Shown: positions 35,972-36,892 of the stretch, in pieces
Numbering within the stretch: position 1 is the first letter of the stretch
How the letters are laid out: each line of letters opens with the position of its first letter
Origin: Synechococcus sp.
GTDB taxonomy: Bacteria; Cyanobacteriota; Cyanobacteriia; Thermostichales; PCC-7336
Direction of reading: 5' to 3'
Length of the DNA stretch: 57,810 nucleotides
Assembly: GCA_051439425.1 (NCBI GenBank)
Contig: JBFRWD010000120.1
Location: 1 to 57,810 of the forward strand
Notes under the pieces: model-generated
Database searches by the model: none
What the model was told of the DNA's origin: nothing
What the model saw: the letters and a program-made list of their open reading frames with translations, nothing else
Made by a program: the position numbers and the translations under genes

Positions 35972-36892
35972 TTAGGCTCGAACGCTTGCACAGACAGAGC
36001 AGAGGCGTCTGGATTTTCTTCTCCTCCTGCCCATACCGCCTTTCTTGTACATTTTTCGCTTCTTCGCAACGTGACTGACACTTTTCGCAAGGCTGCGAGC
36101 GGTCTTCGGTCGTTGGGCAACTTTAGTCGTCGTCTTAGCAATGGTTTTGGCGATCGGTTGACCTGTTTTTTGAGATACTTTTTTCGCTGTCTTGACAATC
36201 TTGGGCATTGCTTTTGTCACCTTTGCCCCTTGGCGATGACCTAGCTTTTGTGTGGCTTTTCGAGTTGCTTTGACTAACTTAAGCCGTTTAGATTTCGGCA
36301 TACCAGCGACGTTTGGAATTGCCTTTCGAACGGCTAAACCAGCAATCACAGGAGCAGCCGAATCCAACTCGTCCATGTAATCTGCATAATCAGCTAGTTC
36401 GTCCAGTGCTTCAAACTCATCCGCACCATCCATCAAGACTTTGCCAAGTACACTAGCAACTTTGCCAACTCCCTGCGCCCAGGGGAGTGGAATTTTGTTC
36501 GCAATAGGAGCCACAACTCGGGCAACCTTACCAAGACCTCGACCCGCTTTTTTGGCAACCTTTTTGACTTTGCCCCATAACTTCTTAAGGAATTCGTCTT
36601 CATCGTATTCACCGAGGGCATCGGCAACCGCATTGTCGAGGGCATCTAATAGATCGGCTTCACCAAGATCGTCAAATTCATCGAACTCGTCGTATTCATC
36701 AAACTCATCTTCAAGTTCATCATCAAATTCATCGTAGGTATCGTCGAATTCATCGAACTCATCGTACTCGTCAAATTCATCATCATATTCATCATAGACA
36801 TCATCAAATTCATCGTATTCGTCATAACCCATCTCTGCTAAACCCTCATCTGATTCGTAAAGTAAGTCATCCATGACATCGGTGGGATACAT
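35972..36892 (-). CDS. charge-segregated protein: acidic (Y/F)DE-repeat N-terminus, Lys/Arg-rich C-terminus
   Basis: AGGAG SD 8 nt before ATG 36892 (MYPTDV); 306 aa; ends GRRRRKSRRLCSVC. Confidence 0.85.
   Translation of the reverse strand: MYPTDVMDDLLYESDEGLAEMGYDEYDEFDDVYDEYDDEFDEYDEFDEFDDTYDEFDDELEDEFDEYDEFDEFDDLGEADLLDALDNAVADALGEYDEDEFLKKLWGKVKKVAKKAGRGLGKVARVVAPIANKIPLPWAQGVGKVASVLGKVLMDGADEFEALDELADYADYMDELDSAAPVIAGLAVRKAIPNVAGMPKSKRLKLVKATRKATQKLGHRQGAKVTKAMPKIVKTAKKVSQKTGQPIAKTIAKTTTKVAQRPKTARSLAKSVSHVAKKRKMYKKGGMGRRRRKSRRLCSVCASVRA
36669..36830 (-). repeat. degenerate ~9-bp coding repeat encoding (Y/F)D(E/D)
   Basis: Recurring tcatcaaat / tcatcgtat / tcgtcaaat units on the + strand; YDEYDEFDDVYDEYDDEFDEYDEFDEFDD. 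Confidence 0.85.

Follow-up and report, generated by a model that had tools for sequence, protein, structure and literature searches.

The 57,810-nucleotide stretch of DNA analysed here (Synechococcus sp., contig JBFRWD010000120.1; hereafter the window) carries on its minus strand, at 35972..36892, a gene encoding a 306-residue protein in which acidic and basic residues are sorted almost perfectly into separate blocks. On the sequence evidence, this product and a tandem paralog belong to an undescribed family, referred to below as the bipolar family, and the pair heads a self-contained, horizontally mobile module of 8–10 genes in which export signals were not found. Tentatively, and with rather less than even confidence, we favour for the protein the role of an adaptor or scaffold inside the cell, self-neutralised and possibly subject to processing at an invariant junction, by a mechanism that we infer from the features set out in the following sections.

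Charge segregation in the bipolar protein

The gene was assigned from its open reading frame (ORF), its ribosome binding site, and its homologs. The ATG start codon at 36892 has the sequence AGGAG 8 nt upstream and the stop is at 35972 of the minus strand, while use of an alternative TTG start, which extends the ORF to 36964, leads to an overlap with the upstream gene. The first 100 residues of the product include 52 Asp or Glu (D/E), no Lys or Arg (K/R), and 18 Phe, Tyr or Trp residues. They consist of an acidic-hydrophobic tip motif (residues 1–20; 36833..36892), recognised by its conservation in the family and found also in the paralog family, and of an acidic, aromatic-rich stretch without K/R (residues 21–100; 36593..36832), which was delimited by its composition, by the predicted local distance difference test (pLDDT) values of a structure model, and by repeats in the DNA. 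The acidic stretch corresponds to an imperfect DNA-level tandem repeat with a period of 72, 1.9 copies and 81% matches, in addition to periods of 9–21. The preliminary description of this DNA, made from its letters alone, had placed an abrupt switch of charge at 36592–36500, i.e., at residues 101–131, and the boundary falls exactly at E100|F101.

The block that follows (residues 101–153) contains 13 K/R and no D/E. It begins, at the invariant F101, with a cationic amphipathic helix (residues 101–131; 36500..36592) identified by hydrophobic moment, conservation and model, and includes the best-conserved segment of the protein (residues 118–153; 36434..36541), which is composed of small and hydrophobic residues with a Pro-rich turn and was defined from the alignment and pLDDT. 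A second acidic patch (residues 154–180; 36353..36433), assigned from composition, model and alignment and helical in the model, holds 11 D/E and no K/R. The remainder (residues 181–306) has 39 K/R and no D/E; here, pLDDT and the family columns mark out a helical domain in which all charged residues are basic (residues 181–287; 36032..36352). The acidic leader of about 100 residues devoid of K/R, the second acidic patch, and the Lys/Arg-rich C-terminal third had all been noted in the preliminary description and were recovered as described. The CSVC that it had placed at the terminus is present as a CxxC motif (residues 298–301; 35990..36001), but lies five residues before the C-terminal end.

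In a runs test, the 115 charged residues of the protein formed 4 like-charge runs, compared with 58.0 ± 5.3 expected (z −10.2), and the five neighbouring operon proteins gave z values from −0.2 to +1.5. The charge of the acidic arm (−52) is matched by that of the two basic blocks (+52), and the median net charge in the family is −6, which makes "self-neutralised", the word first applied to this protein, a fair one. Calculation of the hydrophobic moment (Eisenberg scale, 18-residue window, 100 degrees), a check proposed together with the prediction of the cationic amphipathic helix, bore out that prediction: the maximal moment, 0.81 at residues 108–125, was reached by none of 2000 shuffles of residues 101–131. 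The first 20 residues have a net charge of −7 and lack a hydrophobic core, and the hydropathy maximum of the whole protein is 1.07 (19-residue window), at residue 180. Judged by the charge and hydropathy of the N-terminus, a secretion signal was not found.

Distribution and conservation of the family

A word-indexed search, in which 8000 candidates were scored, identified 212 homologs (E value ≤ 0.001) from cyanobacteria and from beta- and gammaproteobacteria. Those named by their source are all designated "hypothetical", save one with an evidently spurious kinase label. An exhaustive profile search of 1.84 billion proteins gave 439 cluster representatives at an E value ≤ 0.001, 305 at 1e-10, and 156 at 1e-30. 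Because the gene is carried by only 2 of the 41 genomes around that of the window, its distribution is wide but patchy. The protein had no match in Pfam, NCBIfam, PADLOC or PHROGs, a search of PDB sequences with its profile was likewise negative, and the ESM Atlas returned unnamed clusters only. The NCBIfam row for PlpA, which fell on the acidic repeat with 19.3 bits against a cut-off of 1300, was rejected as compositional.

Conservation, charge and motif counts were taken over 73 aligned sequences. The mean top-residue frequency is 0.68 in the tip (residues 1–20) and 0.38 in the linker that follows, and D5, M7, D9 and L10 of the tip are each at least 90% conserved. The best-kept parts of the family are the tip, an acidic helix at residues 81–101, the segment 118–153, whose top-residue frequency of 0.76 exceeds that of every other region, and the second acidic patch. 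Least conserved is the acidic linker (residues 21–80), with a length of between 25 and 110 residues; unlike this low-complexity linker, residues 81–100 form a conserved acidic helix. The junction between the acidic and basic blocks is the site of strongest conservation: the column of F101 and a single other are the only ones without variation, and conservation reaches 90% or more at D97, D99 and E100.

The segregation of charge is also a property of the family. The number of like-charge runs has a median of 7 (range 4–18), the N-terminal part contains no more than 3 K/R in 69 of the 73 homologs, and family columns 181–262 have a median of 19 K/R and 0 D/E (D/E range 0–1). The helix described above is conserved, all 73 homologs having an amphipathic basic helix with a moment of at least 0.5 (median 0.89) and a net charge of +5 to +16. 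At the other end of the protein, a CxxC motif is located within the last 60 residues in 56 of the 73, and a terminal strand motif resembling GPVxIxI, absent from the window's copy, is shared by 51 of the 73.

A deep-branching version of the whole operon is present on a plasmid of Paraburkholderia sp. PGU19 (locus L068, ~2700–12700). The HExxH protein and the 361-residue protein of the module, both described below, are 32% and 35% identical, respectively, to their counterparts there, and a LuxR gene is nearby; the record itself is almost unannotated. The two bipolar-type proteins of this locus have arms made of Glu/Leu/His or Glu/Gly/Trp repeats, not (Y/F)DE, and retain the order of acidic arm, amphipathic basic helix, acidic patch, and Arg-rich domain. 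Since the order is kept with different repeats, it is the architecture that persists and not the sequence of the arm. The composition of these arms bears on one further explanation, namely that the bipolar protein is cation-binding or mineral-associated, with an arm that binds metal ions at high capacity and a body that anchors it to a compartment of the module. While the 52 carboxylates in 100 residues and the Glu/His repeats of the Paraburkholderia arm, a composition often seen in metal-binding stretches, point in this direction, metal-handling genes were found neither in the module nor conserved beside it, the proposed metal-binding arm is the least conserved part of the protein, and nothing else points to metals. 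We regard this explanation as highly improbable.

Among 10 representatives scanned, one, a metagenomic protein of 669 residues (P0383; L056:12-2021), consists of a bipolar-family domain fused to OmpA-like and PG_binding_1 domains. The operon was not seen on its 3.4-kb contig. This is a single case that could be an assembly chimera, and the four genome loci found alongside match the OmpA part only.

Structural model

An AlphaFold2 model of the protein, obtained from the 73-sequence alignment, has a mean pLDDT of 76.7 and a predicted template modelling score (pTM) of 0.67. Residues 1–75 have a pLDDT of about 50 and are predicted to be disordered (47–63 over residues 21–80), whereas the entire stretch 68–287 is modelled as helical. 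Values are 91–95 over residues 81–110 (94–95 over residues 81–100), fall to 58–64 at residues 121–140 despite the high conservation of this region, and reach 85–98 over residues 161–280, with 96–98 over residues 181–270. The cationic helix corresponds to helix 98–131 of the model; the acidic helix 68–92 lies before it and helices 137–154 and 159–173 come after it. Moreover, residues ~64–180 superpose on designed four-helix bundles (Z 5.4–5.9, 93–112 residues aligned), which suggests an up-down bundle (~67–180) in which the cationic helix forms one of the rods and has acidic partners. In the light of the model, we propose that this helix would be a structural element of a folded protein, not a stored lytic peptide, and that the conserved segment 118–153 might serve as a partner-binding site.

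This arrangement is difficult to reconcile with the layout of an antimicrobial peptide (AMP) precursor, to which the preliminary description had likened the protein. That layout was not found, because the protein lacks a signal peptide, has its helix at an internal position, and possesses a large, folded body. What had been taken for a basic tail is modelled as a confident helical domain, and a separable terminal peptide is not apparent either: the helix is followed by 175 conserved, confidently folded residues and runs directly into the best-conserved segment. From the peptide-precursor reading there remain the conserved helix and the syntenic HExxH gene, while the lack of a signal peptide and the position of the helix in a bundle speak against it.

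Lysine avoidance and possible polyanion binding

In 52 of the 73 homologs lysine is absent altogether, while the number of arginines ranges from 29 to more than 50. The homolog from a Microcystis locus with 47% G+C contains 0 Lys and 42 Arg, compared with 3–13 lysines in each of its neighbours; the absence of lysine is thus not an effect of base composition, and lysine is specifically avoided in most lineages of the family. An Arg bias was also seen across the module in the same Microcystis locus, where the HExxH protein has 6 Lys and 46 Arg and the DUF4438 protein 3 Lys and 34 Arg. In the clade of the window the preference is reversed, the protein studied here having 36 Lys and 16 Arg. Lys and Arg are therefore interchangeable across the family, which implies that positive charge and not residue identity is conserved.

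The same features are consistent with an autoinhibited polyanion binder, in which the basic body would bind DNA, RNA or polyphosphate and the acidic arm would mimic the polyanion and mask the body until displaced or removed, much as in HMGB1, with its basic boxes and acidic tail, or in a protamine precursor. The body contains 52 K/R and its last 126 residues are free of acidic residues, the charges of arm and body balance, and in the 52 lysine-free homologs Arg is the only basic residue, as in protamines. Furthermore, several HMG-box chains superpose on residues ~155–296 or 223–290 of the model with Z values of 5.1–6.1, which are within the noise for helical models. Sequence comparison with Pfam, NCBIfam and the PDB, however, gave no match to DNA-binding families, and apart from its regulator the module contains no nucleic-acid enzyme or recognisable DNA-handling gene. 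Nor does the likeness to protamines extend to the window's own clade, where Arg is mostly replaced by Lys. On balance, this explanation is considered unlikely, and the assignment as a self-neutralised adaptor or scaffold is retained below.

The upstream paralog and the organization of the module

The upstream gene (36936..38081, minus strand) encodes a protein of 381 residues which, based on a comparison of both family alignments by hhalign (probability 99.9%; E value 2e-33; 224 columns), is a diverged tandem paralog of the bipolar protein. The paralog was found in 11 of 13 long loci, and one locus has three copies. Its copy in the window retains the terminal strand motif and, judging from its sequence, is decayed in this genome. 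It has a His/Gln-rich filler where its relatives have the basic helix, and its GTG start is uncertain.

To describe the surroundings of the pair, the proteins of the window were compared by tblastn with 33 related loci. The HExxH gene, which had been pointed out earlier as adjoining that of the bipolar protein, follows it in 30 of the 33 loci, with 61–70% identity to the window's protein. Matches to the 361-residue protein (60–85% identity), the DUF4438 protein (59–73% identity), and the LuxR protein were obtained in 27, 25, and 24 of the loci, respectively, and all seven conserved genes occur in the same order in 24. In the three loci where the HExxH gene is missing, little sequence is available downstream, and most of the other incomplete loci are cut off by the end of a contig; in one locus the gene for the 321-residue protein and the LuxR gene are absent although its sequence continues. 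The order, which is shared by cyanobacteria and proteobacteria, is two bipolar proteins, HExxH protein, 642-residue protein, 361-residue protein, 321-residue protein, DUF4438 protein, and LuxR regulator. As the flanking genes vary between loci, the module is self-contained. The hosts include cyanobacteria (among them bloom-forming Microcystis), nitrifiers, methanotrophs, pseudomonads, and Burkholderiales. The slots between the conserved genes are filled by unrelated small ORFs.

A convincing membrane segment was found in none of the proteins of the module, the 19-residue hydropathy being ≤ 1.79 outside the bipolar protein. The isoelectric points (pI) alternate along the module, the HExxH (10.4) and DUF4438 (10.6) proteins being basic and others acidic (4.7 and 4.9), an alternation that would suit electrostatic pairing.

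Two observations on individual loci may be added. In three cyanobacterial operons, the gene for the 321-residue protein and that for the DUF4438 protein are separated by an inserted gene of the Uma2 family (putative restriction endonucleases), which lies on the opposite strand (L012:17306-17959, L032:17641-18294, and L017:11185-11820). On a contig from a metagenome-assembled genome attributed to Crocinitomicaceae (L011), the scores of the bipolar, HExxH, and 642-residue proteins almost equal those of Microcystis loci, and the Bacteroidota label may reflect a binning error.

The HExxH protein and the invariant junction

The gene next to that of the bipolar protein (34661..35944, minus strand) encodes a protein of 427 residues, recognised by its HExxH motif and its synteny. 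The motif, H192-E193-x-x-H196, is encoded at 35357–35371, and the sequence E234-x-x-x-D238 at 35231–35245 of the same strand. In 26 sequences of this protein H192, E193, H196, E234 and D238 are invariant, so that HExxH is accompanied by a downstream Glu in an ExxxD context. As invariance extends to roughly one third of all columns, this is weak evidence for a gluzincin. None of the 26 members had a match in Pfam at an E value ≤ 1, and PDB searches with the sequence and with the profile were negative. A relationship to M48 was not supported: hhalign with an M48 alignment built from related genomes gave 21 columns around the HExxH motif at a probability of 8.4%. Based on its motifs, the protein may be a metallopeptidase.

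A peptidase at this position would allow for a protease-armed pro-toxin, an extension of the pro-lytic reading in the preliminary description, in which the HExxH protein cuts the junction and frees an acid-free polycation, with the helix permeabilising a membrane or the polycation condensing nucleic acids. Such a system is suggested by the conserved amphipathic helix with its high moment, by the strict synteny with the HExxH...ExxxD protein, and by the invariant junction, where the acidic block is directly followed by Phe; a hydrophobic residue just behind the cut is what thermolysin-type enzymes prefer. The patchy spread (2 of 41 genomes of relatives) together with the variable flanks is likewise reminiscent of accessory or defence-type modules. 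Nevertheless, all nine proteins of the module were without a match in PADLOC 2.0 (2023 library; 0 families at an E value ≤ 0.01) and in PHROGs. The helix runs on into the conserved core and lies within a bundle in the model, fold searches with the HExxH protein matched no peptidase, six further conserved genes would be superfluous for a two-part toxin system, and the presence of two paralogs per operon is not accounted for. Such a pro-toxin thus appears very unlikely.

Proposed role of the bipolar protein

For the self-neutralised intracellular adaptor or scaffold, we propose the following arrangement. A conserved 20-residue tip, carried on a disordered acidic linker, would be followed by a DxDEF-type junction and an all-helical body, in which the cationic helix packs between acidic helices and is succeeded by the basic-only domain and by a C-terminal CxxC or strand motif. 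The acidic arm would cover the basic body or compete for it, either intramolecularly or intermolecularly, with the paralog among the possible molecules, while the tip and segment 118–153 would dock onto other proteins of the module. The most likely partner would be the HExxH protein, which may also cut the invariant junction and thereby part the arm from the body.

Several results weigh against this proposal. The burial of the cationic helix in a bundle was deduced from secondary structure, pTM, and superpositions of a model in which the pLDDT of helix 98–131 falls from 91 to 58 in its second half. A Foldseek search with the model against the PDB and viral models gave no match at an E value ≤ 0.001, and the best VIA wide Z value, 7.0, is within helical noise; with no informative fold match, the model is not anchored to any known function. 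The acid-free body could equally well bind nucleic acid or polyphosphate. In the paralog of the window segregation is mostly lost (36 charge runs; z −3.6). As for the proposed partner, the HExxH protein is modelled entirely as helices apart from a region of disorder at residues 143–181, and it matched no peptidase in fold searches, Foldseek, VIA wide and VIA second look giving only helical-bundle rows confined to residues 1–108.

Other genes of the module

The HExxH gene is followed by that of a 642-residue acidic protein of no known family (32686..34614, minus strand), for which a search of PDB sequences gave no match. A 163-residue ORF (32084..32575, minus strand) occupies a variable slot between this gene and that of the 361-residue protein; other loci hold unrelated ORFs of 160–230 residues in the same slot, and a phmmer search with the window's copy did not recover any of these.

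The 361-residue protein (30922..32007, minus strand) is the most conserved member of the module. Its mean column identity of 82% among 24 sequences, which range from cyanobacteria to proteobacteria, is far above that of the other module proteins, and by this measure its conservation is close to that of a core cellular protein. It has 802 homologs, all unnamed. No family match, no match in a phage collection, and no usable match in the ESM Atlas were obtained, and rows from the PDB were due to chance. The sequence contains no Cys and has several invariant Gly/Arg-rich stretches.

Next in order are a 321-residue acidic protein of no known family (29921..30886, minus strand) and a DUF4438 protein of the TM1086 family (28936..29967, minus strand), the latter assigned from Pfam and PDB matches. 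It matches PF14505 (E value 7.6e-51; 171.8 bits, cut-off 24.9) and PF20999 (E value 9.9e-40; 135.7 bits, cut-off 27), as well as the structural-genomics entries 3n99 and 3dcl (E value 6e-59), on which a paper was not found in the literature. The structures deposited for DUF4438/TM1086 contain 5 and 30 chains, a hint that the protein forms oligomers. A LuxR/GerE-type regulator (28446..29021, minus strand; PF00196, E value 5.7e-17) closes the module.

If these proteins are taken into account, the bipolar pair might be the active component of a novel type of bacterial machine, a self-neutralised polycation, inert under its own polyanionic arm and switched on by an HExxH cut at the junction, with the 361-residue protein and a DUF4438 oligomer as the controlling platform. 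Were this quite unlikely scheme to be true, the acid-free body, which in most lineages also lacks lysine, could condense nucleic acids, form a coat on a polyanionic surface, or breach a membrane.

A literature search by family, structure entries, and locus tags did not yield a description of the operon. Passages of PMC3734047 deal with a neighbouring cluster, and in PMC11836899 the accession apparently denotes another family. For the bipolar protein and six of its seven conserved partners, no paper, family, or solved fold was found in the libraries, the PDB, or the literature.

Surroundings of the module and a partly related locus

Just downstream of the LuxR gene of the module, a gene at 26825–28255 (minus strand) encodes a 476-residue protein with a pI of 10.7, which gave a weak match to PG_binding_1 (E value 0.00097) and weak endolysin PHROG rows. 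Because no related locus has it, this gene was placed outside the module. The G+C content of the window at 24001–28000, beside the module, is 0.42–0.44, compared with ~0.50–0.55 elsewhere, and this stretch contains a second small LuxR-type gene (25401–25913) and a weak GIY-YIG ORF (26066–26536). These features hint at an island border. On the other side, at 38741–39577 (minus strand), three ORFs of 87, 98, and 137 residues in different frames together resemble one short-chain dehydrogenase, with a glycine-rich cofactor motif, NNAG, and YxxxK, which we take to be marks of that family. They are probably a frameshifted pseudogene or the result of assembly errors.

A plasmid of Tolypothrix sp. PCC 7712 (L067, 4558–15776) carries a co-directional row of genes that includes a 615-residue protein with a domain like that of the 361-residue protein, an alpha/beta hydrolase, an S8 peptidase, a PG_binding_1 coiled-coil protein, and five unknowns. 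Bipolar or HExxH genes were not found in this row.

Significance and comparison with known systems

The module comprises eight or more genes, the order of which has been kept across cyanobacteria and proteobacteria; except for the DUF4438 gene and the regulator, none has a match among described families. Its most unusual part is the bipolar pair, given the near-perfect segregation of charge, the body free of acidic residues, and the complete loss of lysine in most lineages. These features are strong and selectable, and they call for a physical explanation. A function for the pair would annotate several hundred gene clusters and may reveal a new bacterial use of built-in polyelectrolyte masking. 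As several of the hosts are culturable, the question is directly testable.

Among known systems, the precursors of AMPs of the cathelicidin and dermaseptin type also have an acidic segment before a cationic helix, with charges that roughly cancel, and the counterpart of their processing enzyme would be a protease gene next door, here the HExxH gene, whose peptidase nature is predicted from motifs. The bipolar protein differs in being bacterial and 306 residues long, with a folded helical body and an internal helix, and in belonging to an eight-gene module; neither a signal peptide or other export signal nor evidence of release was found. Bacterial gasdermins and other protease-activated effectors share with it a potentially membrane-active protein that is self-inhibited, an adjoining protease-like gene, and a patchy spread. 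Gasdermin operons, in contrast, have far fewer genes, and there is no relation in fold or sequence and no PADLOC match; moreover, the inhibitory part of the bipolar protein would be N-terminal and disordered.

HMGB1, in which basic helical DNA-binding boxes are joined to an acidic tail with an autoinhibitory role, combines, like the bipolar protein, a basic helical domain with a long Asp/Glu stretch in one chain. The resemblance does not extend to sequence, Pfam and PDB comparisons being negative, and the superposition of its boxes on residues 223–290 (Z 5.1–6.1) is weak and within noise. In the bipolar protein the acidic part is N-terminal and aromatic-rich, and the basic domain is wholly free of acidic residues. 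Finally, although a shell protein family was not found in the module and the linker of the bipolar protein is extremely acidic, the protein resembles the encapsulation peptides of microcompartments and the cargo-loading peptides of encapsulins in having at one end a short conserved motif that is tethered to the folded part by a weakly conserved linker of varying length.

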